DNA of 53,626 nt, taken from positions 1 through 53,626 of the forward strand of contig JBBUAW010000004.1 in NCBI GenBank assembly GCA_038058475.1, written 5' to 3'. This stretch comes from Patescibacteria group bacterium. Its GTDB lineage: Bacteria; Patescibacteriota; Minisyncoccia; Phycocordibacterales; JACOZG01. Under the pieces are notes generated by a model. The model was not told the DNA's origin, ran no database searches, and saw nothing but the letters and a program-made list of their open reading frames with translations. Position numbers and translations under genes: made by a program. This document shows positions 2,081 to 17,192 of the stretch, piece after piece; within the stretch, counting starts at the first letter, position 1; each line of letters opens with the position of its first letter.

Positions 2081-2341
2081 ATGGCAAACCAAAAAGAATA
2101 TGTTCGCAATCGAGCTGATTCCAAGATCGGCAAAATCGTAGTGGATCGCGACCTCTGCATCGGCGCCGCCTCTTGCATCGCCGTCTCGGGTGAGACTTAT
2201 AATTTAGACAATGAAAATAAGGCGGTGGTACTTGACCCGAACGCCGCGGACGATGCCACCTTGCTGATGTCGGCTCAATCGTGCCCGACCAAAGCCATCC
2301 TGCTTTTTGACAAGTCGGGCAAACAAATTTTCCCCAAATAA
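2081..2341 (+). CDS. Single-cluster ferredoxin, probably [3Fe-4S]
   Basis: CIGAASC (CxxAxxC) plus CPTKAI; 86 aa. Confidence 0.9.
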   Translation: MANQKEYVRNRADSKIGKIVVDRDLCIGAASCIAVSGETYNLDNENKAVVLDPNAADDATLLMSAQSCPTKAILLFDKSGKQIFPK

Positions 2342-2369
2342 GCTTTTTCTTCATTTAAAATTTAAAGTC

Positions 2370-3608
2370 GTGGATAAATACAAATATGTGATTATCGGCG
2401 GCGGCGCGGCGGGGGTGGCGGCGGCGGAGGCCATCAGGCAAGTTGATCAAAACGGTTCGCTCACCATCGTCAGCGACGAAGAACACGCGCTGTATTCGCG
2501 CGTGATGTTGTCCAAACCAAACTTTTTCTTGGGCAAAATTCCCTTTGATCAAGTCTATCTCAAGGGCGATGACTGGTATCGCGAAAACCGAATCAATTTT
2601 CTGGGCGGCCAAACCGCCAGCGGTCTGGACGGGGTGAATAAGGTTATTTCTTTGGCGACCGGCCAGAAATTGCCATACGAAAAATTACTCATCGCGACTG
2701 GCGTCCGCGCCCGGACCCTGAATGTTCCGGGGGCGGACAAATCGGGAGTCCATTGTTTGCGGACGCTGGAGGATGGAAAAAAAATAATGGCTGATCTGAA
2801 AACCGGAAAAACCGCCATTATTGTTGGCGGCGGTTTTATCAGTTTTGAAATGGCGGACTTGTTGAAATTAGCCGGACTGGAAACGACCATTATCCTCCGG
2901 GAAGCTTATTTTTGGGAGCCGATTTTGGACGAAGCGTCGGGGTTGATGATTGAAAATACTCTCATTAAAAATGGTGTAAAAATTATTAAAAAAACCGAAC
3001 TGGCCAAAATCACAGGTGGCGAATCAATTGACGGCGTGATCTTGAAAAACGGTACGGTTATTTCGGGCGATTTGTTGATCTGTGGTATCGGTGTCATCAG
3101 TTCAGCCGACTGGGTCAAACAATCCGGCCTCGCGACTAATGAAGGAATTTTGGCCAATGAATATCTGGAGACGAATTTTCCGGATGTCTGGACCGCCGGC
3201 GACGTTGCGGAATATAAAGATTTGTTATTGGAAGAAAATGTCCAAATGGGCAATTGGGTCAACGCGCGGGAGCAGGGGAGGATTGCCGGACTAAATATGG
3301 TTGGCGGTGAAAAACATCCGTTTAAATTTATTTCTTTTTATACCACCCAAGGTCTGGGTCTGACCATTGCTTTTGTGGGCGATGTCGCGCCGGGCCAAGA
3401 CCGGTTGATCATTCCGCGCGGTTCGCCGACTCTTAATTCCTACGGGCGCTTAATTATCGTCGGCCGAGAATTGATTGGCGCGACCCTCATCAACCGCACT
3501 GTGGAAATGACCACCATCGCCAAATTGATTGAAAATAATGTTGATGTTTCGACCCATCAAACCGAGCTTGGCGATCCGAGTTTTGATCTGAAGAAGTTAA
3601 TTATATAG
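2370..3608 (+). CDS. NAD(P)/FAD-dependent oxidoreductase (ferredoxin/rubredoxin reductase or NirB N-terminal-like)
   Basis: GGGAAG FAD motif, LLIATG, VGGGFI NAD motif, TAGDVAE. The in-frame GTG at 2370 avoids overlap with the ferredoxin gene. Confidence 0.88.
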   Translation: MDKYKYVIIGGGAAGVAAAEAIRQVDQNGSLTIVSDEEHALYSRVMLSKPNFFLGKIPFDQVYLKGDDWYRENRINFLGGQTASGLDGVNKVISLATGQKLPYEKLLIATGVRARTLNVPGADKSGVHCLRTLEDGKKIMADLKTGKTAIIVGGGFISFEMADLLKLAGLETTIILREAYFWEPILDEASGLMIENTLIKNGVKIIKKTELAKITGGESIDGVILKNGTVISGDLLICGIGVISSADWVKQSGLATNEGILANEYLETNFPDVWTAGDVAEYKDLLLEENVQMGNWVNAREQGRIAGLNMVGGEKHPFKFISFYTTQGLGLTIAFVGDVAPGQDRLIIPRGSPTLNSYGRLIIVGRELIGATLINRTVEMTTIAKLIENNVDVSTHQTELGDPSFDLKKLII

Positions 3609-3615
3609 CCGATGT

Positions 3616-5643
3616 TTATTTCATCATTCTCGCATCTACTACGAATACCGAATCGGGATTGACAAGCACCGGATTCAAATCCATTTCTTTAATTTCCGGA
3701 TGCTCAATCGCGAGTTTGGAAACTTTAACAATTAATTCAGCAAGAGCATTTATATTAACCGGTTTTTCGCCACGGACGCCGGTGAGAATTTTAGCGCCCT
3801 TAATTTCTTGAATCATCTCCAGCGCCATTTCTTGAGAAACCGGCGCGATGCGGAGCGCGATATCTTTCAAGATTTCGGTAAAGATGCCGCCAAAGCCGAA
3901 CAAAATGGTCGGGCCGAAAATCGGATCGCGCTTCAGGCCGATAATGATTTCTTTCCCGGAAATCAGCGGTTGAACGAGCAGACCGTCAAGTTTGGCGTTG
4001 GGATTTTCGATCACAATTTCGTCCCAAGCTTTTTCCGCTTCCTCAATATTTTTTATATTTAATCTGACTGCGCCGGAATCGGTCTTATGAATAATGTCCG
4101 GCGAAATCGCTTTCATAACCAAAGGCCCGGAACCTAATTTTGAACGAATTTCTGTAAGCTCGGTTTTTTCTTTGGCCAAGATGCCGCTTAAAGAAATCTC
4201 ATAATCTTCTAAAATTTTGGACATCTCGGCAAAATCCATCATCGACAAAACTGAAACCGGTGCTGGTTGAACGTTGCCTATTTCAACCGCTCTTTCTTGT
4301 TTTTTGACGCCGCGAGCGAGATGATCTAAAGCCTCAATGGCATCCTTCGGAAAAGTAAAATTCACCAGATTATTTTGTCGCAAATGATTAAGACCGGTTT
4401 CCACCGCCGGTCCGCCGATGAAAATCGGCAGAATCGGTTTTTGCTTGCTGAATTCAACAATCAGTTCAGCGGTCGCTTTTGCCTCGGTCATCATTTGCGG
4501 CGTGAGAATCAGAATAATTCCGTCAACTTCTTTTTCGGCGCCGATAATTTTCAGCGCCTCAGCATAACGCATTGCCAGAGCGTCGCCGATGATGTCCACC
4601 GGATTGCCGACGGCCGCCATCGGCGGCAAGACTTTCCGCAACGCCTCTTTGATTGAGTCTGAAAATTCAACCAGAGAAAGGGAAGGTGAAAGATCAATAA
4701 GATCAGTCGCCACGACTGACGGTCCGCCGCCGTTCGTCAAAACCGCCAATCGCCGCAGGGGTTTTTTGATTCCGAGCTGGAAAAGTTTGGCCAAATTGAA
4801 AAGTTCCCGGATTGATTCCACGACAATCGCGCCGGCTTGGCGGCCAGCGGCGGCAAAGACGGAATCGGCCGGCGCTAGCGAGCCGGTGTGCGATAGCACG
4901 GCTTGACGGCCGCGGCCGGAACGGCCGGCGCGCAAAATGACCACCGGTTTGGTTTTGGTGATCTCGGTGCAGAGCCGGATAAATTCCGGCCCGTTGGATA
5001 ATTTTTCCAAATAAACAAGAATCGCTCGAGTCGCCGCGTCTTTAGCCAGATAATCCAAAAACTCAATTTCGGACAACTGCGCCTCGTTACCTAGACTGAT
5101 AAATTTTGAAAAACCAACGTTCTCGGCAATCGCCAAATCAAGAATCGCCGCGCCGAGCGCGCCGGATTGTGAAAGAAAAGCGATCCCGCCGCGCGGCGGT
5201 TTTTGGGCGGCAAACGAGGCATTAAAATCCATTTGAGTATCAATAATGCCGAGGCAATTCGGCCCAAGTAAAGTGATGCCGCAATCTCGGGCCACCGCGG
5301 CAATTTTTTCTTCAAGCGCCTGGCCAACCGCGCCGGTCTCCTTAAAACCGGCGGAAATAATAATCGCCGCGGTAATTTTTTTGGCCCCACAATCCGCCAA
5401 AATCTGCGGCACGATATCCGCCCGAACGGCAATCACCGCTAAATCAATTTCCGCTGCAATGTCTTTAACGGTTGGATAAGATTTCCGTCCCGCCAATTCT
5501 TGGCGGTTGATATTAACCGGATAAATCATTCTTTTACCACCAGTTAAAAGATTGGTCAGCAGGGCAAAGCCAACTTTATTCTTATCGTTGGAAGCGCCAA
5601 TGACCGCTACGGATTGAGGATTAAAAATCTTTTCTAGAGCCAT
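3616..5643 (-). CDS. ADP-forming acetate-CoA ligase, fused alpha+beta (CoA-binding plus ATP-grasp)
   Basis: VAVIGAS, GPNCLG, SQSGA, SHTGSLA (phospho-His), NPVD, HKTDSGAV, EMDLNP. Confidence 0.93.
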   Translation of the reverse strand: MALEKIFNPQSVAVIGASNDKNKVGFALLTNLLTGGKRMIYPVNINRQELAGRKSYPTVKDIAAEIDLAVIAVRADIVPQILADCGAKKITAAIIISAGFKETGAVGQALEEKIAAVARDCGITLLGPNCLGIIDTQMDFNASFAAQKPPRGGIAFLSQSGALGAAILDLAIAENVGFSKFISLGNEAQLSEIEFLDYLAKDAATRAILVYLEKLSNGPEFIRLCTEITKTKPVVILRAGRSGRGRQAVLSHTGSLAPADSVFAAAGRQAGAIVVESIRELFNLAKLFQLGIKKPLRRLAVLTNGGGPSVVATDLIDLSPSLSLVEFSDSIKEALRKVLPPMAAVGNPVDIIGDALAMRYAEALKIIGAEKEVDGIILILTPQMMTEAKATAELIVEFSKQKPILPIFIGGPAVETGLNHLRQNNLVNFTFPKDAIEALDHLARGVKKQERAVEIGNVQPAPVSVLSMMDFAEMSKILEDYEISLSGILAKEKTELTEIRSKLGSGPLVMKAISPDIIHKTDSGAVRLNIKNIEEAEKAWDEIVIENPNAKLDGLLVQPLISGKEIIIGLKRDPIFGPTILFGFGGIFTEILKDIALRIAPVSQEMALEMIQEIKGAKILTGVRGEKPVNINALAELIVKVSKLAIEHPEIKEMDLNPVLVNPDSVFVVDARMMK

Positions 5644-6413
5644 AACTGTTCTTCGTAAGTCGGTTTTTCTATTTGGTAAAAAATTCCCACCGGCGTTTTG
5701 TCGTTTGGTTGGGCCAGAAATTCCCGCACCGCTTTTTTATCTTGAATCGGAAAATTTTCGGGTCGGGGATAAAGCCGCTCCTTGAAATATTCGCGAGTGT
5801 CAAAGAAAATCAAACACGGCTGGATTATTTCCACAAAGGCAAAACCTTTATGTTCAATCGCCGCCGCCATTATTTTTTTAGTGCCGGCAATGTCGCCCGC
5901 ATAAGTGCGGGCCAGAAAAGTCGCACCGGCCTCAAGCAACAAAGACAACGGAGCAAACGGTTCTTCCAAATTGCCGGCCGGCGTTGATTTTCCTTGGTAG
6001 CCCTTGGGACTCAAGGCGGTGGCTTGGCCGGTGGTTAGGGCAAAAACTTGATTGTCGTGAAGAAAAATTTTCAAATCGGAATTGCGGCGGGCGGCCTGGA
6101 TCAAGTGTTCTAAACCCTCGGAAAAAGAATCACCATCGCCGGTAAAACCGATGACGGTCAATTGCGGATTGGCACACTTGATGCCGGTCAGCGCCGGCAG
6201 CACCCGCCCGTGAAGCGCCGTAAAACTGTTCAGATTTAAATAATCGGCAATTTTGCCGTGGCAACCAATACCGGCACCAACGACGATATTTTCCGATTTG
6301 ATTTTCCCTGTTTTAATCAACTCTTCAACGGTTTGGCGGAAAGCCACCAAAATGGCGTAATTCGGACAACCCGGACACCAAGTGATTTTGGCTGCGGTTG
6401 ATAGATTATTCAT
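5634..6413 (-). CDS. korB: 2-oxoacid:ferredoxin oxidoreductase beta subunit (TPP-binding)
   Basis: WCPGC, GIGC, HGR, GDGD, DNQVFALTTGQ, QPC. ATG 6413 overlaps the alpha-subunit stop. Confidence 0.93.
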   Translation of the reverse strand: MNNLSTAAKITWCPGCPNYAILVAFRQTVEELIKTGKIKSENIVVGAGIGCHGKIADYLNLNSFTALHGRVLPALTGIKCANPQLTVIGFTGDGDSFSEGLEHLIQAARRNSDLKIFLHDNQVFALTTGQATALSPKGYQGKSTPAGNLEEPFAPLSLLLEAGATFLARTYAGDIAGTKKIMAAAIEHKGFAFVEIIQPCLIFFDTREYFKERLYPRPENFPIQDKKAVREFLAQPNDKTPVGIFYQIEKPTYEEQLWL

Positions 6414-8109
6414 AACCGAAGGCGTTAATTTGTTGCGCGAGTTCAATCGGGTCAAACGGTCGGGAATCATATTTTAAAATATTTTTTGTAACTTGCCGGC
6501 CGGTTTTTTCGTGGATGAGAGCGGCCAGTTGGGCATTATGGTTGCCTTCCACATTGATAATTTTCTTGACATCCGCCAAGGCCGCCAAAACCTTCTTGAC
6601 ATCAAAAGGTTCAAGCCAGACAATTTGCACCAACTTAACCGGCCGGTCAAAATATTTAGCAGCCTCCATAACCGATCCCTTGGTTGAACCCCAAAAAATT
6701 ACCGCCAAATCGGCTTCTTTGTCTCCATAAATTTTTATCGTTTCTTGCCGATCTAATTCCGTCGCTAAAATCTTGGCCTTGGCAAAACGCTTATCCAGCA
6801 TTGCCTTGACCAGTTCGGCCGTCTCGGTAGTCAAACCTTTCTCATCATGTTCATAACTGTTAACTTTAACAACAGTCTCCGGCGTGCCCGGAAAAGCCAG
6901 AGGCGAAACCCCGTCATCCGTAATTTGGTATCGGTGATAGTCAGAACCAGTTTGGCCGGCTGTTTTTCCCGATTCAATTTTGATCTGATCGGTGGCTAAT
7001 TGGCTGGTGGTCGGATGTTCGGAAACAATTTTATCCATCAACACAATCACCGGTATTTGATATTGCCAAGCCAGATTAAGACTGCCGGCGCCGGCGAGAA
7101 AAGATTCCTCGGCATCGCCGGGCGCGATCACGATCCGTGGAAATTCCCCGTGACCGGCATGAATCGCCAAGCGCAAATCAGCTTGACTGGAAAAAGTCGG
7201 CACGCCAGTCGCCGGCGCTTGCCGTTGCGAGACCGCCACGGCCAATGGTAATTCCGCGCCGCCAGCAAAACTGAAGGCCTCCTGCATCAAAGTAAAACCG
7301 CCAGTCGCCGAACCGACGGCTACCCGCTGGCCGGCATAGGCCACTCCGAGCGCCAGATTAATCGCGGCGAGCTCATTCTCCGGTTGAATTACTTTCAGTT
7401 TCGGCCGATTTTTTTGTTCGCCGGCCAAAAAATGCAAAATGGAAGTGGCCGGCGTCATCGGATAAGCAATATAAAAATTAAGACCGGCGGCCAGCCAGCC
7501 CTTGGCCAAGGCAGTATTCCCGTCAATCAGTTCTTTTTTGATTTGATTCGGTTTAATTTTTTTAAATATCACTCGTCCGGTTTTTTCCAAAAATTCAAAA
7601 CCGAGGCGGGCTAATTTGATATTAAGTTCCGGTTGTTTATCTTTGAAAACTTGCTGTAAAATTTTTTGCAACGTTTCAAAATCCAGAGCCAGAAGATAAC
7701 CCAGCGCGCCGAGAGCAACCGAGTTGCGCGCCACTGCTGGCGCGCCGACGGCCGCGGCGGCGGTCGCCATCGGCAAAACCACAGCGTTGGCGCCGCGCGC
7801 AGCCGTTTCCGCGGGGGTCAATTCGTCGGCAAAAATAATGGTACTTTGTTCCAATTCATTTCGGTGAAGAGTGATAGTTTCTTCATTTAAAGCAATCAAC
7901 ACGTCTAGTTTAATATAATCACACCAGATTTTTTCCGAGCTGAAAGACAAACGGGTGAAATTATGCCCGCCTCTAATCAGTGAAGGATTGGCGAGCGAAA
8001 CGAAAACCTCATAACCAAGTTCGGCCAAAAGCGAACCGAACGCGTAACCGGCTTCTCTGGCGCCGTCACCGGCAGCGCCACCGATGCCAATAGTAAAGAT
8101 ATCAGCCAC
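6406..8109 (-). CDS. korA: 2-oxoacid:ferredoxin oxidoreductase alpha subunit (fused gamma-alpha)
   Basis: GGAAGDG, IRGGHN, YPMTPAT, ENELAA, GHGEFPR, SYEHDE. GTG 8109 lies 6 nt after an extended -10. Confidence 0.93.
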   Translation of the reverse strand: MADIFTIGIGGAAGDGAREAGYAFGSLLAELGYEVFVSLANPSLIRGGHNFTRLSFSSEKIWCDYIKLDVLIALNEETITLHRNELEQSTIIFADELTPAETAARGANAVVLPMATAAAAVGAPAVARNSVALGALGYLLALDFETLQKILQQVFKDKQPELNIKLARLGFEFLEKTGRVIFKKIKPNQIKKELIDGNTALAKGWLAAGLNFYIAYPMTPATSILHFLAGEQKNRPKLKVIQPENELAAINLALGVAYAGQRVAVGSATGGFTLMQEAFSFAGGAELPLAVAVSQRQAPATGVPTFSSQADLRLAIHAGHGEFPRIVIAPGDAEESFLAGAGSLNLAWQYQIPVIVLMDKIVSEHPTTSQLATDQIKIESGKTAGQTGSDYHRYQITDDGVSPLAFPGTPETVVKVNSYEHDEKGLTTETAELVKAMLDKRFAKAKILATELDRQETIKIYGDKEADLAVIFWGSTKGSVMEAAKYFDRPVKLVQIVWLEPFDVKKVLAALADVKKIINVEGNHNAQLAALIHEKTGRQVTKNILKYDSRPFDPIELAQQINAFGYE

Positions 8110-8154
8110 GGGAAAATTATAGCATTTCATATTTTGTGCTACAATATGGAAAAA
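8110..8154. promoter_or_regulatory. Divergent pair of extended -10 promoters (oxidoreductase operon / hydrogenase operon)
   Basis: TGCTATAAT on - at 8116-8124; TGCTACAAT on + at 8137-8145. Confidence 0.7.
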
Positions 8155-8652
8155 ATGACGGGACCGAATAATCAGGAAAAGATTAAAATCGGCTGGTTCA
8201 CTTTCTCGTGTTGCGAGGATAATTTAATTGTGATGACGGAAGTAATGAATGACCACTGGCAAGACTGGAAAAAACTTTTTGATTTCCGGCATGTCCGCGT
8301 ATTGAAGTCGCATAATATTTTAGATGAATTGGACATTGCTTTCGTTGAAGGCGCCTTGGCCAGTCCGGAACAAGAAGCCAAAGTGAAAGATATCCGCGCG
8401 CGTTCAAAAAAATTGGTGGCCGTGGGCGCCTGCGCCGTCGTCGGTTTGCCAGCCGGTCAGCGGAATTATTTTACGCCGGAGCAAAAAGCCAACATTGATT
8501 TTCTCTTAACCCGTTTTGACGCTCTGCCGGCGGTTAAGAAAGTGGCGGACGTGGTGTCGGTGGATGGGGAAATCCCCGGTTGCCCGATGACGCCGGAAGA
8601 TTTTTTGACCAAGGTCAACGCGCTGGTCGCCGAATTGCGTCCCGCCGTTTAA
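8155..8652 (+). CDS. [NiFe]-hydrogenase small subunit (HydD/HoxY-like, single cluster)
   Basis: SCCED, FVEGA, VAVGACA, IPGCP; no C-terminal ferredoxin domain. Alternative start ATG 8146. Confidence 0.88.
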   Translation: MTGPNNQEKIKIGWFTFSCCEDNLIVMTEVMNDHWQDWKKLFDFRHVRVLKSHNILDELDIAFVEGALASPEQEAKVKDIRARSKKLVAVGACAVVGLPAGQRNYFTPEQKANIDFLLTRFDALPAVKKVADVVSVDGEIPGCPMTPEDFLTKVNALVAELRPAV

Positions 8653-8667
8653 TTTTAATTTTTCACT

Positions 8668-9960
8668 ATGCACACCTTTGATTTATCAATGGAGCACATC
8701 ACGAAAGTGGAAGGCAGTGCCGCGCTTAATTTGCGCGTGGTCGATGGGCGGGTTAAAGAAGTACATTTTGCCCTGACGGAATACAAACGATTTTTTACCG
8801 AAGCTCTAAAAGGCAAATCGTTGGCGGCGATTCCGCCGCATTTGGCGCGAATCTGCGGCACTTGTTCCAACGCTCACATTATGGCCAGTATTGAAGCCTG
8901 TGAAAAAGCTTTAGGCATCGTTCCCACTTCCCAGACCAAACTTTTGCGCGCGCTCACGATGCACGGCCTGATGATTCGCGATCACGCCTTACATCTCTAT
9001 TTATTTTCGCTGCCGGATATTTTTGGCAAGGACGCTTTTCTGGATTTGGATGAAAATGATTCCATTGAACACCAATTGCTTCATGACGGTTTTGACACGA
9101 AATCGGCCGGTAATTTTTTGGCGACTTTGGTGGCCGGACGAAGCGTGCACGCGACTTATCCGGTCATCGGCGGCTACCTGAAATTTCCCGATCCGGCGGG
9201 CGTGGCCGAGGCGATTGAAAAACTTCAAGCGATCCGGCCGGCCGTCCGGCGCCTGGTGGAAATCTTTAAAAACGCACCATTCCATTTTGACCGCCAGACA
9301 AAATATATGGCTCTCGTGCCGGACAATAATTACGGTTATCTGGAAGGCAAGATTATGACCAGCGCCGGCGAAAGTTATGATGAAAGCCAGTTTCGGGCGC
9401 ATCTGGAACATGTCGTGCTGCCTTATTCTCAAGCTTCGGCCTACACTTACGAGGGCGAAGGTTATATGGTGGGCGCGCTGGCGCGCCTGAATTTGGCGAA
9501 AGATAAATTGCACCCTAAAACCAAAGAATCGCTGGCGGCGGTCTTAAAACTTTTTCCGGCCACCGATATCTATTTGAATAATGTCGCTCAAGCCGTGGAA
9601 ATTCTGCACGCGGTGGACGAGTCAATAGAAATTCTTTCCAATCAAATGTTTTCGCCGGAGCCGGTGATTAAGGCGGAAGTAAAAGAGAGCGTCGGGGTCG
9701 GCGTCATTGAAGCGCCGCGGGGCACGCTCTATCACAAACTAGTCATCGGCGCGGACGGCCAGGTGAAAGAAGGGGAAGTCGTGGTGCCGACCGGCCAAAA
9801 CCAAATCAACATTGAGCGCGACATCGCGCGGTTGGTGCAGGAATTAGTTGACCAAAACACGGCGCAAGAAAAAATCGCTCCGGAAATTGAAAAACTGATT
9901 CGCGCCTATGATCCGTGCATGAGTTGCGGCTCGCATTTTTTGAAAGTTAATTGGGAGTAA
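8668..9960 (+). CDS. [NiFe]-hydrogenase large subunit, group 3b-related
   Basis: TKVEG, L1 RICGTCSNAH, EAPRGTLYH, VVPT, L2 YDPCMSCGSH followed by a 7-aa tail FLKVNWE. Confidence 0.93.
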   Translation: MHTFDLSMEHITKVEGSAALNLRVVDGRVKEVHFALTEYKRFFTEALKGKSLAAIPPHLARICGTCSNAHIMASIEACEKALGIVPTSQTKLLRALTMHGLMIRDHALHLYLFSLPDIFGKDAFLDLDENDSIEHQLLHDGFDTKSAGNFLATLVAGRSVHATYPVIGGYLKFPDPAGVAEAIEKLQAIRPAVRRLVEIFKNAPFHFDRQTKYMALVPDNNYGYLEGKIMTSAGESYDESQFRAHLEHVVLPYSQASAYTYEGEGYMVGALARLNLAKDKLHPKTKESLAAVLKLFPATDIYLNNVAQAVEILHAVDESIEILSNQMFSPEPVIKAEVKESVGVGVIEAPRGTLYHKLVIGADGQVKEGEVVVPTGQNQINIERDIARLVQELVDQNTAQEKIAPEIEKLIRAYDPCMSCGSHFLKVNWE

Positions 9961-10829
9961 TAAATTACCAAACTAATTCCGCCCACGTACAAGATTGTTG
10001 TCGCCAGATTGCTGATGGAAAAAGAGCGAGTGATGAACAAAGCCGAAAGAATGTTTGTTACTAGCGTCGCGGGGACAAGCAACGCGGCGACATAAGTCGC
10101 CGCCGCGCGTTTCAGCGCGGCGTACCAAGTCAGAACATAACCAACGAGCAGCACAGCGGTTAATAAAATCCAACCCCAATTTGCTCCTGAAAGTTTGGCT
10201 GCTTCGCCGAAGCCGCCGGTGAGCGAAAGATAACCGGCCAACAAAATGGCACCGAAGACCATTCGGGCCCCGGCCACCGTTAAACTAGAAATATCCGCCA
10301 GAACTTTTTTGGCGATAATATTTTCAATCGCCCACAAAATTGTGGCAACCAAAATCAGCAATTCACCGGTGTTAAATTTGAATCCAGTAAACCCGCCGAC
10401 AAACAGATTAGCCGCGAAGATAATTCCAATACCAAACCACTGTTGCCAAACCAGCCGTTCTTTGAGGAAGAAGATAGCCAAGAAAGCGACGAACAAAAAG
10501 AGGGTTTTGTGAATTAAGGCGCCATTGATCGCACTAGTTTGGGCCAGGCCGGTAAAAAATAAAGCGAAAGGCAACGCGCCGCCGACCGCGCCAATCAACG
10601 CCAGTTGCGCCCACTGTTTCGCCCGAAACGTTTTTATTTCCGACCAACGTTTAAACACAATAAAAATTCCCAAAATAAAAATCGCCACCAAACTGTTTTT
10701 AATAGTCGTGAACAGCACTGGATTGCTGAAACCAGTAACGGCCAATTTGTTCACAAAATTAGCCACGCCGGAAATCAGCGCGGTCGTTAAAGCCAAAAGA
10801 ACAGCCGATTTGGATATTTTCATATTCAT
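9906..10829 (-). CDS. EamA/DMT-family transporter
   Basis: About 10 hydrophobic segments in two repeats; FFLKERL motif. Confidence 0.88.
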   Translation of the reverse strand: MNMKISKSAVLLALTTALISGVANFVNKLAVTGFSNPVLFTTIKNSLVAIFILGIFIVFKRWSEIKTFRAKQWAQLALIGAVGGALPFALFFTGLAQTSAINGALIHKTLFLFVAFLAIFFLKERLVWQQWFGIGIIFAANLFVGGFTGFKFNTGELLILVATILWAIENIIAKKVLADISSLTVAGARMVFGAILLAGYLSLTGGFGEAAKLSGANWGWILLTAVLLVGYVLTWYAALKRAAATYVAALLVPATLVTNILSALFITRSFSISNLATTILYVGGISLVIYYSQLTFKKCEPQLMHGS

Positions 10830-10843
10830 TATTATAAATTATA

Positions 10844-11221
10844 TCACGTTAATTTAGAAATAATATCACCAGTTAATCTGACCGCCGTTTCAACCGCGAT
10901 CGCCGGCGGCAAGCCGATAATTTTTATTTCTTTTAAACGGCCGATTTTTTTCAGTAACCGGAGGTTGGCCAACGCGTCAAAATCGTGCATAGAAATTCTG
11001 GGCGCGGCCGTGAATTTTTCCAGAGACTCAAAGATAGTAATTTTTTTCAGATTGATCACGGTGTCAATCACTATCAGTTTAACCGGCACCGCCCAGTCTT
11101 CGTTCGGGTCTTTCACTTCAAATCTGATTGATGGAAATTTTGCCTTCAATTCGGGCAAGATTCGCAACGGCAGAGAATCTGACGGCAAATCCAGATTACC
11201 AAAAACATAAACCGTTTTCAT
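10844..11221 (-). CDS. Hydrogenase maturation endopeptidase-like protein (short, divergent HycI/HybD fold)
   Basis: VYVFGNLDLPSD, LIVIDTV and SMHDF parallel the GN..DD, D-A and SxH motifs of HycI/HybD; located next to the hydrogenase. Confidence 0.65.
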   Translation of the reverse strand: MKTVYVFGNLDLPSDSLPLRILPELKAKFPSIRFEVKDPNEDWAVPVKLIVIDTVINLKKITIFESLEKFTAAPRISMHDFDALANLRLLKKIGRLKEIKIIGLPPAIAVETAVRLTGDIISKLT

Positions 11222-11230
11222 CTTTTTATT

Positions 11231-11986
11231 TTAAATCGTTTGATTAGCCAGCGCTATGCTTTTTAGAGTATATTTTTTAAGCGTCGCCGCTTGTTTTTTG
11301 GTAATCACTTCGCAGGGCACGCTCCAGTGGATGGAAACAATTTGGCCGGGCTTGATTTGTTCAATATCATACTCCGCTTCTAATTGTCGAATTAAAATTT
11401 TAATTATCGGCTGGCCCAAGGCGAGTTTGCTTTGAACATAAATAAGCGGTTCTGTCAGCACGGTGATTTCCGGCCCCTTGATAGTAACCACCGTGCCGGC
11501 GCTGACGCGGCATTCGTCCAGACTTTGGAGCGTTTGCGCCACCTCGGCGTTTCCCGTGCGCCGCCAAATGTTAAAAACATGGAAGGAATGATGGGGAACC
11601 GCGCCCTGCGCGATTTTTTCTTCCAGCCATTTAAATTCTCGGCTGCCAATGATTTTTTTCACCTCCAGATTGTCGGTGAGAAAATGGTGTAATTTTCTTT
11701 TTTCCACTACTTCCAACAACCAATTGCCGAGCCAGTAAGCTTCCACCACGCGCCAGTTAAACGGATTTTTGATCCGATTAGCTTCCGCAATATGCCAGAG
11801 ATAAGGATAAAGAGTTTTAAATTGCTTGAGTAATTTAGCTAATCCGAAATCGGTTGCGCCGGCTTCAATATTCGCGCGCAGTTCCGCGTTGGCGTCCGGT
11901 CCGCAATAATGCAGACGGTTCGGACCGAAAGCATAACGGCCACAGCGCAGAATCCCTGCCATTTGGTCAGCCGAAGTATTTTTCAC
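11231..11986 (-). CDS. Uncharacterised DUF6390-like protein with HypC-like C-terminal region
   Basis: YAFGPNRLHYCGP, LYPYL, VVEAYWLGN, PHHSFHVF, CRVSAG, VSIHW. Family name recalled from motifs, not searched. Confidence 0.7.
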   Translation of the reverse strand: MKNTSADQMAGILRCGRYAFGPNRLHYCGPDANAELRANIEAGATDFGLAKLLKQFKTLYPYLWHIAEANRIKNPFNWRVVEAYWLGNWLLEVVEKRKLHHFLTDNLEVKKIIGSREFKWLEEKIAQGAVPHHSFHVFNIWRRTGNAEVAQTLQSLDECRVSAGTVVTIKGPEITVLTEPLIYVQSKLALGQPIIKILIRQLEAEYDIEQIKPGQIVSIHWSVPCEVITKKQAATLKKYTLKSIALANQTI

Positions 11987-12632
11987 TGTAAAATTTCAGC
12001 AATTCTTCAGCCTTGGGCAGGCAAGCCGGATTACCGATGCCGACTTTAGTTTTCTTCTGCAGATCACTCAGCGTCCGCGCGCCTTCAATCACCGCTTCTT
12101 CAATGTCCGCTTCCGTTACTTTGGTATCGGGATCAATAATAGCCGTGCCTTCAACGATCACGCGCTGATACTGGCCGGTTTGTTTAAACCAGTCGTTTAA
12201 CGCCGCGCACAAGGCCTTATCGCCCAGCACCGAGCAATGAATCTTACGGTCGGGCAGGCCGCCCAATCGTTTGGTGATGTCCTGTGGCCTGATCGCCAGC
12301 GCCTGATCCACCTTCAGACCGCCGTGCTCGGTCACCATCACCGACAACATTGAGGTCGCGGCGATCGCGCTGGCGCAGCCGAAAGTTCGCCATTTAAATT
12401 CTTTAATCCGATCGGTCGCCGGATCAACTTTTAGCCAAACCCTCATCACGTCGCCGCAAGCGGGCGAACCGATGATTCCTTGAGCGTTGTATTGATCGGT
12501 TTTCGGGTCTTGCAACAACAGATTTCGCGGTTGGAAAAAATGTTCCTTCACCATCTTGCTATACACCCAACTGCCGGCAGTCCGGCTGATCACCTCCGGC
12601 TTGATATTTTTTGATTTATTTTTTTTAATCAT
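11967..12632 (-). CDS. iscU: Fe-S scaffold IscU/NifU N-domain fused to a degenerate BFD-like domain
   Basis: YSKMVKEHF, GSPACGD, FGCASAIA, KIHCSVL; C-terminal VTEADIEEAVIEGARTL. Confidence 0.9.
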   Translation of the reverse strand: MIKKNKSKNIKPEVISRTAGSWVYSKMVKEHFFQPRNLLLQDPKTDQYNAQGIIGSPACGDVMRVWLKVDPATDRIKEFKWRTFGCASAIAATSMLSVMVTEHGGLKVDQALAIRPQDITKRLGGLPDRKIHCSVLGDKALCAALNDWFKQTGQYQRVIVEGTAIIDPDTKVTEADIEEAVIEGARTLSDLQKKTKVGIGNPACLPKAEELLKFYSEKYFG

Positions 12633-13926
12633 ATTTTTTTACTTTTTTGATCGCGTAAAGTGCGGTGCGCGTAAAGTGTGGTGTTTGGCCGCCGATAAAC
12701 GCTTGGGGCAAGGAAATTAATTTTTTCCGACTGGTTAATTTTAAATTAAGCGGCGACATTTGGCGAAGATCGCTCACAATTATCGACAGATGTTTAAGCA
12801 CGTAATTTATTGCCGATCTCGTCGTCTCTCTGCCCAAAGTAAAACGCAGACTGCCGTGAATGTATTCGTAAGGCCGGCCGAGAGCCTCAATGATATAAGA
12901 CGGTTCAAGGGTTTGAGAATTGCACGCCGAACCGGTGCCGACCGAGATATTTTTATCGTCCAAACGCAAAAGCATCGCCTCGCCCTCAATGTCCAAAATG
13001 GAAACATTCAAAAAATTCGGGAGACGTTTGACCGGGTGACCATTCAAAATTACTTTCGGTATCCGGTTTAAAATTTGTTTTTCCAAATAATCGCGCAAAA
13101 TTTTAATTCGCCGCGTTTCTTTCTTTCGTTCTTGAGTCACCAGCTCAAGGGCTTTGGCAAAACCGATAATCGCCGGCAAGTTTTCGGTTCCCGAACGAAG
13201 ATTGTTTTGCTGGCCGCCGCCGTAAATGAGCGGTGTTAATTTCAACTTACCTCGAACCAGAAGACCGCCGATACCTTTCGGCCCGCCGAGTTTGTGGGCG
13301 GACAGAGTCAATAAATCAACCAGCAAATGTTCGGCGTCAATGTTTAAATAAGCGGCGGCTTGAGTCGCGTCGGTGTGAAGGTAGGGATGCGCCTGCCCTC
13401 GCGCGCGGCGAAACTTTTTCACTAACGCGGCAATTTGTTGAATGGGCTGGATGGTTCCGGTTTCGCTGTCGGCCAAAGTGACGGATAACAGAATCGTTTT
13501 TTCATTAAGGGCCGCGGCTAATTGTCGAAGATTGATCAGGCCGTTTTTATTGACGCCGATAGTAACGATTTCAAAACCTTCGGTAGCCAAGGCCGCGGCC
13601 GCGGCCAGAATCCCTTTGTGCTCAACCGCCGAAACAATAATACGGTTTCCTTGAGATTTTAACGCTCGCGCCGCGCCCAAAATCGCCAGGTTATCCGCTT
13701 CGGTGGCGGAGCCGGTAAAAATAAATTCGGCCGGCGGGCCGCCAAAAATATCAATAATTTTTTGCCGCGCGCAATCCAACGCTTGTCTCGCTTCGTGCCC
13801 TAATTTATACAAACTGGCGGAATTACCGAATCGGCGGCTGAAAAAGGGGAGCATCGCTCGCATGACTCGGGGGTCAAGCGGCGCGGTCGCGGCGTAATCA
13901 AAATAGTATTTAGTCAATGCTCGCAT
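12625..13926 (-). CDS. iscS: Cysteine desulfurase IscS/NifS
   Basis: YFDYAATAP, GSATEADN, HTDATQ, SAHKLGGPKG (PLP Lys), RSGTEN, GSAC. ATG 13926 follows TGTTATACT. Confidence 0.93.
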   Translation of the reverse strand: MRALTKYYFDYAATAPLDPRVMRAMLPFFSRRFGNSASLYKLGHEARQALDCARQKIIDIFGGPPAEFIFTGSATEADNLAILGAARALKSQGNRIIVSAVEHKGILAAAAALATEGFEIVTIGVNKNGLINLRQLAAALNEKTILLSVTLADSETGTIQPIQQIAALVKKFRRARGQAHPYLHTDATQAAAYLNIDAEHLLVDLLTLSAHKLGGPKGIGGLLVRGKLKLTPLIYGGGQQNNLRSGTENLPAIIGFAKALELVTQERKKETRRIKILRDYLEKQILNRIPKVILNGHPVKRLPNFLNVSILDIEGEAMLLRLDDKNISVGTGSACNSQTLEPSYIIEALGRPYEYIHGSLRFTLGRETTRSAINYVLKHLSIIVSDLRQMSPLNLKLTSRKKLISLPQAFIGGQTPHFTRTALYAIKKVKKYD

Positions 13927-13966
13927 CGCCCGTCCAGTATAACAGAAAACAGGGGAGTTATTTAAA

Positions 13967-14004
13967 AACAAAAAAAACGCCAGACTTGGTGGCCTAGCGT
14001 TTTT
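13967..14004 (-). terminator. Probable intrinsic terminator of the 63-aa gene
   Basis: AAAAACGC...GCGTTTTT inverted repeat with a U-run on the minus strand. Confidence 0.5.
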
Positions 14005-16129: not shown

Positions 16130-16525
16130 TTAAACCATTTTTGAATACTGATGATAATTTTCTCTTACAGCGTTTTTCCAATTTGCTGTTTCGTTTCCAT
16201 CACCCAAATCTGTCTTGTTATACACCAATAAAACATGAACTATAGATGTGTTCTTGTGAACAGCGACAATACACCTATTACCTGAAGAACGCCTTGATTC
16301 TTGCGTGCCATGAACACGAAATTCAGTTTTACAAATCCTTACATCCCCGACTTCTGTAATAGTTTCCGCAATATTTGTTTGCCCAATCAAAGTGTCAATG
16401 CGCTTAAACTCCTCATGCATACCAACCCATGTCACATCCCAAGCACCTTTATATTTCTTTTTAAAGCTAGAAATAAAGTGTCGTTCTGCGTATTGTTCTA
16501 TTACAACAGCATAATTAGTAAACAT
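16130..16525 (-). CDS. Putative toxin (RelE/HigB-like fold) paired with Panacea antitoxin
   Basis: Overlaps the antitoxin stop by 11 nt; C-terminal SSGNRCIVAV...VLLVYNKTDL resembles RelE-family GxRxI...LxxYxKxD. Confidence 0.6.
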   Translation of the reverse strand: MFTNYAVVIEQYAERHFISSFKKKYKGAWDVTWVGMHEEFKRIDTLIGQTNIAETITEVGDVRICKTEFRVHGTQESRRSSGNRCIVAVHKNTSIVHVLLVYNKTDLGDGNETANWKNAVRENYHQYSKMV

Positions 16526-17192
16526 AATCCGGGTCTTGCTGAATTATCAATTCGTACGGAATTGTTTCGTCAGGAGAACAAAGTTTATAAGGCAACTGTT
16601 CGTGGGTAAAATCTACAATTTCCTGCGTTCTTTTATCTTTCCATTTTGTAGAGATTTTTTTCATCAAACCCAATTCGCCTTCGCTTATCAGGTCTAATTC
16701 CTGGTGTTTAGCGCCTGTACCGATGAGAACAGCATCTCCTTTGTAGTCAACAGTAATTTTTCCCTCTTCTTCGAGCTCGGCTAACGCTCTAAAATATGGA
16801 TCAGGAACTGGGCCGTATGTTCTCCGGAGATACTGCATTCCGCTCATGCTCTCAAGTTTATTGTAATACCATGCAAAATCAGCAAGATAGAGAAGCTTGG
16901 CAAGTTTAGTCTTTGGAATTTTCCCATCAGTAGAGAGGGGTGATTGTAAATAAGCAAGGATCATTTGCTTGTATTTTTCATATTTTGGCAAAGTTGCTTT
17001 TGCAAATTCTTCAATAGAAATACCAAATAAATCTTTTAATTTCTCTGCTTCTTCTAGGGTAAGGCCTCTATTTCCACTCTCGATAGAAACATAGGAAGGT
17101 CGGGAAAGGCTTAATTTGTCTGCTACAAAAGATTGCGAAAAACCTCGCTCTGTTCTAAGCGCCTTTATAAATTTGGCATATTTATTAGTCAT
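16515..17192 (-). CDS. XRE-HTH plus Panacea (DUF4065/SocA) antitoxin
   Basis: IKALRTERGFSQSFVADKLSLSRPSYVSIESG (XRE HTH); KLAKLLYLADF, YGPVP and FTHEQLPY (DUF4065). Confidence 0.87.
   Translation of the reverse strand: MTNKYAKFIKALRTERGFSQSFVADKLSLSRPSYVSIESGNRGLTLEEAEKLKDLFGISIEEFAKATLPKYEKYKQMILAYLQSPLSTDGKIPKTKLAKLLYLADFAWYYNKLESMSGMQYLRRTYGPVPDPYFRALAELEEEGKITVDYKGDAVLIGTGAKHQELDLISEGELGLMKKISTKWKDKRTQEIVDFTHEQLPYKLCSPDETIPYELIIQQDPDYVY

Follow-up and report, generated by a model that had tools for sequence, protein, structure and literature searches.

How does a [NiFe]-hydrogenase acquire its iron unit in a genome where the usual maturation genes are not found, and what part might the DUF6390 protein encoded beside it play? 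The question is raised by the window, by which we mean the whole analysed stretch of 53,626 nucleotides from a Patescibacteria group bacterium; in its source assembly (587 kb, 86% complete), no HypA, HypB, HypC, HypD, HypE or HydG was found. Published descriptions of the standard pathway place the iron unit on Cys2 of HypC and Cys41 of HypD, possibly together with His51 of HypC, and have HypC deliver it to the large subunit (PMC12134894, PMC11565642, PMC8692609). HypC uses a free N-terminal cysteine (PMC12134894, PMC8692609), and a 2025 review describes six Hyp proteins as necessary for the NiFe(CN)2CO cofactor (PMC12134894).

The hydrogenase locus and its DUF6390 gene

The hydrogenase is encoded on the plus strand by a gene for a truncated small subunit (8134..8652, 172 aa, PF01058) and a gene for a large subunit (8668..9960, 430 aa), which is related to group 3b and carries the motifs RICGTC, EAPRG, VVPT and DPCMSCGSH, the last followed by a 7-residue tail. 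A truncated small subunit is described as typical of hyd2 hydrogenases (Jaffe et al., 2020; PMC7304191), no beta or gamma subunits are adjacent, and both a PF07992 protein (FAD oxidoreductase, 2307-3608) and a ferredoxin (2081-2341) are encoded nearby, so that the gene content of the locus fits the hyd2 type. Together with an ADP-forming acetate-CoA ligase and a two-subunit 2-oxoacid:ferredoxin oxidoreductase, these two genes occupy positions 2081-8130, diverge from the hydrogenase and likely form a fermentative electron route.

Converging on the two hydrogenase genes are five minus-strand genes, in the order NifS/IscS-like desulfurase (12625-13971), NifU-like scaffold (11967-12632), DUF6390, hydrogenase maturation protease-like protein (10844..11221, 125 aa) and EamA/DMT transporter of a DUF6390-linked subfamily (9906..10829, PF00892). 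The desulfurase gene lies directly upstream of the NifU-like gene, which lies directly upstream of DUF6390, and the pair possibly provides an iron-sulfur supply. The protease-like protein matches PF01750 at E 3.3e-4, under the cut-off, and its D15, D53, H79 and D80 are invariant in 62 of 62 relatives. At their 3' ends, the EamA and large-subunit genes share 55 nt (9906-9960). Elsewhere in the window, a HTH-Panacea (SocA-like) antitoxin gene is followed by a 131-aa gene of no confident family (16130-17192), probably a toxin-antitoxin pair.

The DUF6390 reading frame comprises 251 codons (11231-11986, minus strand) and is open up to a GTG at 11986. Translation likely begins at the ATG at 11962, 4 nt past the NifU stop, giving a gene at 11231..11962 and a protein of 243 aa; an identical 243-aa record is present in the database (P0003), and most homologues begin to align at residue 9. 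Residues are numbered throughout on the 251-codon frame, in which C159 is residue 151 counted from the likely start. The protein had been called uncharacterised, and it is indeed unstudied, but it belongs to a named family: it matches DUF6390 (PF19927) over its full length at E 1.1e-55, residues 10-250 falling on profile positions 4-240 of 244, with 189 bits against a curated cut-off of 25. Its named close homologues are from Patescibacteria.

Relation to HypC and conserved residues

The original prediction saw a HypC-like domain in residues 159-240, with the cysteine and histidine of HypC retained, and this is borne out by profiles, by hhalign and by fold searches with a model. When a family profile was compared with PDB sequences, the top three of the four matches listed were HypC proteins (2z1c, E 0.0096; 3vyr, E 0.012; 3d3r, E 0.3), and C159 was aligned with Cys2 and H220 with the conserved histidine. 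We aligned 118 family members, namely the query, 6 of 120 close homologues and 111 near-full-length sequences of 150 representatives; PF01455 was matched by 31 of them at E<=1 (best 4e-7), and any other non-DUF6390 family by at most 4, among the 25 families shown. Alignment by hhalign to 21 HypC sequences covered 66 columns at a probability of 95.4 and E 1.7e-8. An AlphaFold2 model (pLDDT 93.6) consists of a helical N-terminal domain, a five-strand barrel and a final helix. In a VIA search with the whole model, HypC 2z1c_A came first and was the sole chain of 48,161 with Z of at least 5 (Z 5.6, a middling score; rmsd 2.1 Å; 71/71 residues), model residues 159-247 being placed on chain residues 2-72. 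Foldseek likewise ranked 2z1c first, but at a weak E of 0.019 and tied with OB folds of the ribosomal S17 type. With HypC ranked first in both searches, the predicted fold is of the HypC OB type. Taken alone, the window protein gave no PF01455 match in the profile search, and the single sequence returned only chance matches in the PDB search. By four routes, the relation of residues 159-247 to HypC is beyond chance.

The HypC-like OB domain with its C-terminal helix (11246..11512, minus strand) is delimited by fold, profile and conservation, and the all-helical N-terminal domain before it (residues 9-158; 11513..11962, minus strand) by models and conservation. The predicted model has the OB fold and C-terminal helix of a HypC, and the conserved histidine, His51 in E. 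coli, is present as H220 (codon 11327-11329, minus strand) in 118 of 118 members. Two other HypC traits are missing: HypC is a small stand-alone protein of 65-90 aa, compared with 243-251 aa here, and in place of a free cysteine at position 2 the equivalent residue is C159 (codon 11510-11512, minus strand). This cysteine is internal, behind the helical domain, and, as had been foreseen, cannot be the free N-terminal cysteine of HypC.

Likeness to other maturation proteins was sought as well. No PF01924 (HypD) match was seen for the window protein or any of the 118 members among the 25 families shown, and the HypD motifs CGxH and GPGCPVC are absent from the window sequence. Nor did the window protein match PF00374 or any NCBIfam model, and it thus lacks the likeness to the large subunit that HoxV and HupK have. 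Residues 1-158 found nothing below E 4.5 in Foldseek; in VIA the highest Z was 5.7, reached on helical fragments of 51 residues, and several rows for acyl carrier proteins had Z 4-5 over residues 57-147. We read these rows as ordinary packing of helices, which neither amounts to a match nor demonstrates a new fold.

Four residues are invariant in all 118 aligned members (C159, H220, H133 and G87), followed by C28 (116), H136 (107), C225 (96) and H132 (88). Of the additional metal ligands first suggested for the N-terminal domain, C28 (codon 11903-11905) and H133 (codon 11588-11590) hold up, H136 (codon 11579-11581; all minus strand) less strictly, and C15 (46/118) and H26 (23/118) are rejected. 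C28, H133, C159 and H220 are kept wherever covered in 21 more divergent copies, among them a 168-aa copy from which most of the barrel is deleted. A single chain thus combines a pair of invariant cysteines with a pair of invariant histidines, and one of each lies on a HypC scaffold. Judged from this conservation, the four residues may form one 2Cys-2His site, in which C159 would sit like Cys2 of HypC and C28 would act like Cys41 of HypD. No Fe-S or nucleotide-binding motif is visible in the DUF6390 sequence. A complex prediction of the large subunit, DUF6390 and Fe scored 0.62 against 0.46 for the control, which carries no weight either way.

Short DUF6390-like forms of 150-180 aa also exist (L047:8077-8583; G276:C4:4452-4925; ESM Atlas clusters), and archaeal ESM Atlas clusters of this kind, with partial PF01455 annotation and feature scores of 0.77-0.84, are leads. 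Eight further proteins of 200-260 aa are encoded in or near the DUF6390 slot (L053:7398-8174; L061:7007-7765; L062:7509-8294; L052:9515-10165; L056:6443-7054; L066:5672-6298; L069:3033-3698; L070:5046-5738). They have an invariant Cys-His-His-His set in the order of C28, H133, C159 and H220, with His for C159. Homology to DUF6390 was not established (hhalign probability 1%, and 41% to HypC, which makes them weakly HypC-like); they are possibly very distant relatives.

Maturation genes, neighbouring HypCs and transporters

Two samples of 301 genomes each were compared, most of them incomplete metagenome assemblies and some of them related and hence not independent. One came from the phylum of the window, where 23 of 27 genomes with DUF6390 are at least 90% complete; the other, of 1-8 Mb genomes requested at a completeness of at least 90%, came from the phylum of L149 (titled Chloroflexota). 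In the first sample, all 27 genomes with DUF6390 were among the 63 with a hydrogenase large subunit. HypD was present in 14 of the 63 and in 0 of the 27, and HypF exceeded the cut-off in 10 of the 63, with further partial matches only in HypD genomes and none in the 27. HypC exceeded its cut-off in 51 of the 63, including 21 of the 27, and 22 of the 63 had neither HypD nor DUF6390. In the second sample, 30 genomes had DUF6390 and 136 had HypD, with an overlap of 0 (Fisher P 4e-9, which is overstated since relatives are not independent). HypD was found at E<1e-130 in most of the 136; one of them, G568, is unpublished, and the result is unchanged when it is left out. PF00374 was matched in 30 of the 30 DUF6390 genomes, a few times weakly, and HypF in 0. 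HypE exceeded the cut-off in 0 of the 57 genomes, 8 of which had matches below it at about 80-103 bits. All 57 DUF6390 genomes of the two samples therefore combine a [NiFe] large-subunit match with no detectable HypD, HypE or HypF.

The carbamoyl-phosphate synthase large subunit was found in none of five DUF6390 genomes tested, the source genome included. In the second phylum, HypB exceeded the cut-off in one of five genomes, and one genome (G576) has HypA, HypB, HypC and DUF6390 and no HypD, HypE or HypF. HydG exceeded the cut-off in 2 of the 27 own-phylum DUF6390 genomes (G066, G152) and in 0 of 5 from the second phylum. HydG and HydE were rejected as ligand suppliers: HydG is rare, and the sole radical-SAM match of the source genome is not HydG-like.

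In the large subunits themselves, the motifs of the metal site and of the ligand pocket are retained. Among 101 from fetched loci, RxCGxC was kept in 99, EAPRG in 97 and DPCxxCxxH in 94, and VxPT in nearly all. In characterised enzymes the pocket motifs hold the CN and CO ligands, and the pocket for these ligands is therefore intact. In the second phylum the DUF6390 pattern recurs with full-length, group-1-type large subunits. Two large-subunit homologues (L063:5401-6585; L064:6058-7287) have no metal-binding motif at all, and their loci have no HypC, HypD or DUF6390.

Other variations were met in passing. HypC is fused to a radical-SAM protein of the HydE family in [NiFe] loci without HypD (L037:4264-5547, 5552-6922; L051:5308-6609; L055:3033-6763; L067:7624-8874); both fusions tested exceeded the cut-offs of TIGR00074 and TIGR03956, HydG adjoins the fusion in L037 and L055, and FeFe maturases apparently serve a NiFe enzyme there. 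A HypA-like gene of 84-86 aa (L031:4521-4775 and 11 similar genes), starting with MHD or MHE and lacking the zinc-finger cysteines, accompanies tetrameric loci in which the large subunit stops at its final histidine and a protease is lacking.

The exclusion of the standard Hyp pathway by DUF6390 is not universal. DUF6390 directly follows hypD on the Mycobacterium intracellulare plasmid NZ_CP012886 and follows hypE on the Sulfobacillus plasmid CP003180, in both cases with a complete hypCDEF set, and, of five non-CPR genomes drawn from the locus scan, two have HypD; our phylum samples covered two phyla, with Actinomycetota outside them. In three frameshifted records DUF6390 directly follows hypE, and in one it follows a NicT nickel transporter. 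The apparent HypE- and NicT-DUF6390 fusions are rejected as frameshift artefacts, with truncated HypE and junk linkers, and count as adjacency only.

The HypCs encoded at DUF6390 loci keep Cys2 and have lost the conserved histidine in 38 of 40 (one pair being a duplicate); at HypD loci the histidine is kept in 5 of 5. Among second-phylum HypCs, read by eye, it is lost in 14 and kept in 5 of 19. The Sulfobacillus plasmid has a HypC without the histidine besides a normal one.

An EamA gene lies within 2.5 kb of DUF6390 in 57 of 80 scan loci and for 13 of 20 genome copies, two sets that share some genomes; in the second phylum a transporter lies within 2.5 kb of 25 of 31 copies (EamA 15, family-5 ABC binding protein 6, ABC binding protein of a second class 3, both 1). 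The transporter families used as queries were drawn from DUF6390 loci themselves, and the counts stand without a background rate. Neither plasmid locus has an EamA gene or ABC binding proteins of these classes. Three unrelated transporter types thus occur in the slot beside DUF6390; the family-5 protein has NikA as its best NCBIfam match, with 139 bits far below the cut-off of 393. An EamA match was found in 14 of 27 long DUF6390 homologues, with 8 clean EamA-DUF6390 fusions that are 40-83% identical, one of them on a genome contig (L083). Within the linked EamA subfamily (n=84), K44 (79), K108 (74), K174 (79) and R189 (77) are conserved, and these basic residues suggest an anionic substrate. 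DUF6390 also occurs fused behind HTH DNA-binding domains of the PadR, GntR, XRE (twice) and ArsR families (P0151, P0153, P0155, P0181, P0227). These fusions, of four types among the 150 representatives and with the PadR fusion in a cluster of 15 members, suggest that DUF6390 is used there as a ligand sensor.

Possible roles and comparison with known systems

Viewed from its genes and models, the DUF6390 set would be a variant hydrogenase maturation machinery. We find it plausible, if not quite probable, that DUF6390 stands in for the missing HypD as the receiver of an imported Fe-CN(-CO) unit destined for the immature hydrogenase. A stand-in for HypD is favored because 21 of 27 genomes keep a separate HypC and 0 of 27 have HypD, and a replacement of HypC itself was rejected on the same count. 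The partner transporter, here EamA with its four conserved basic residues, would import an anionic, preformed Fe-CN(-CO) complex, which DUF6390 would bind and hand on, either to the free Cys2 of a His-less HypC where a genome has one or, where it has none, as in the source assembly, without an intermediary to the large subunit. The remaining steps, insertion of nickel and removal of the tail by the protease encoded nearby, would then proceed as usual. More doubtful is the wider notion of a salvage pathway, in which microbes lacking HypD, HypE and HypF import the preformed complex through EamA or ABC transporters, DUF6390 installs it, and the complex is shared like a vitamin. Against import of a preformed complex in either form, we know of no natural extracellular pool of such a complex. 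The loci and genomes in which DUF6390 accompanies HypD, the 22 of 63 hydrogenase genomes that lack both, the 5 of 19 second-phylum HypCs that keep the histidine and the NikA match, which would suit nickel too, also weigh against the receiver reading.

Other readings of the same pattern deserve attention. DUF6390 might take the place of HypD as an assembly scaffold that makes the iron unit itself. The starting material would be a simple small anion taken up from outside, such as cyanide or thiocyanate, and the iron would be the cell's own, supplied for example by the adjacent NifS/NifU pair. The exclusion of HypD, HypE and HypF would suit it equally, the basic residues of EamA suit any small anion, and the invariant cysteine pair would allow thiol chemistry. 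An IscS-like gene at 11 of 80 related loci and DsrE/TusA sulfur-transfer genes after DUF6390 at three second-phylum loci point the same way, but most loci lack such sulfur genes. The usual cargo of family-5 binding proteins, peptides or metal chelates and not small anions, also speaks against this scaffold, as does the want of a [4Fe-4S] or nucleotide motif in DUF6390 when HypD is described as needing redox and ATP functions (PMC12134894, PMC11565642). We regard it as unlikely, though not far-fetched. It is improbable, in our judgement, that DUF6390 acts as a chaperone for nickel, or for metals generally, coupled to a nickel importer, with the iron unit coming from another, unrecognised source. 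Such a chaperone would agree with the 2Cys-2His set, which suits Ni or Zn, with the missing HypA and HypB of the source genome and the single HypB in five second-phylum genomes, with the remote NikA match and the one NicT neighbour, and with the sensed ligand hinted at by the regulator fusions, and it would account for the co-occurrence with complete hypCDEF sets. It leaves unexplained the 0 of 57 genomes with HypD, HypE or HypF against a background of 136 of 301, the descent from the iron carrier HypC, the loss of histidine in neighbouring HypCs and the loci that keep HypA (and in G576 also HypB) beside DUF6390.

The chance seems slight that DUF6390 is only an auxiliary holder, serving an enzyme which is inactive or has a metal site without CN and CO, and which can therefore do without HypD, HypE and HypF. 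The function of hyd2 has been called uncertain (PMC7304191), the hydrogenases here are known from sequence alone, neither system is present in 22 of 63 hydrogenase genomes, and L063 and L064 have lost all motifs; set against this are the large-subunit motifs (the four cysteines, EAPRG and VxPT), which nearly all of the 101 sequences retain, the invariant protease residues in 62 relatives, and the recurrence of the pattern with full-length group-1-type enzymes in a second phylum. That the missing genes merely reflect faults of assembly or detection is hardly credible: most assemblies are metagenomic and the source genome is 86% complete, but three separate genes are missing from every one of the 57 genomes, a completeness of at least 90% holds for 23 of the 27 from the window's phylum and was requested for the second sample, and HypD, where present, was detected with very low E values in most of the 136 positives.

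If DUF6390 does act as the receiver, it and its partners would constitute a second route to the NiFe cofactor and a simpler tool for making hydrogenases. The recurrent combination, in 57 genomes of two phyla, is a large-subunit match, no detectable HypD, HypE or HypF, a small HypC-derived protein and usually a transporter, a set of three to five genes; there would then be reason to count as active those hydrogenases that a survey might dismiss because hyp genes are missing. Should import also prove true, an organometallic metabolite would be shared in microbial communities.

Our literature search, with most subscription journals outside its coverage, returned no publication naming DUF6390 and, among the entries listed, none describing such a system. 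Homology to HypC was noted earlier for a family, fam002, beside the hyd1 and hyd2 hydrogenases of CPR bacteria (Jaffe et al., 2020; PMC7304191), and we infer that fam002 is DUF6390. The relevant sections of that account give no domain boundaries, residues, missing hypD, hypE and hypF or transporter link; fam002, hypC and hypD are absent from its four text supplements, and its figures may identify fam002.

By the features that define HypC, HypD and HoxV, DUF6390 belongs to none of the three. Among known systems, HypC and its relatives HybG, HupF and HoxL (PF01455, TIGR00074; 2z1c, 3vyr, 2ot2, 3d3r) share with DUF6390 the OB barrel and C-terminal helix, the cysteine and histidine at the positions of Cys2 and His51 in E. 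coli, and the location in [NiFe]-hydrogenase loci. Unlike them, DUF6390 has its cysteine internal, behind a helical domain of 150 residues with an invariant cysteine and histidine of its own; it has about 18 extra barrel residues and HW..C instead of HxGxA, and it usually stands beside a separate HypC and without HypD, exceptions with HypD notwithstanding. The HypC-HypD scaffold resembles what we infer for DUF6390, an iron unit held on two cysteines close to histidines and then passed on to the large subunit, whereas DUF6390 is one chain without a HypD match or Fe-S motif, is tied to transporters, and occurs in 57 genomes in which HypE and HypF were not found. The closest functional analogy is that of HoxV or HupK working with HoxL or HupF, described as a relay or store of Fe(CN)2CO together with a dedicated HypC paralogue (PMC12134894), and it would fit the genomes that have both DUF6390 and Hyp systems. 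HoxV and HupK, however, are similar to the large subunit and rely on HypCDEF acting upstream, whereas DUF6390 is derived from HypC and mostly occurs without them.
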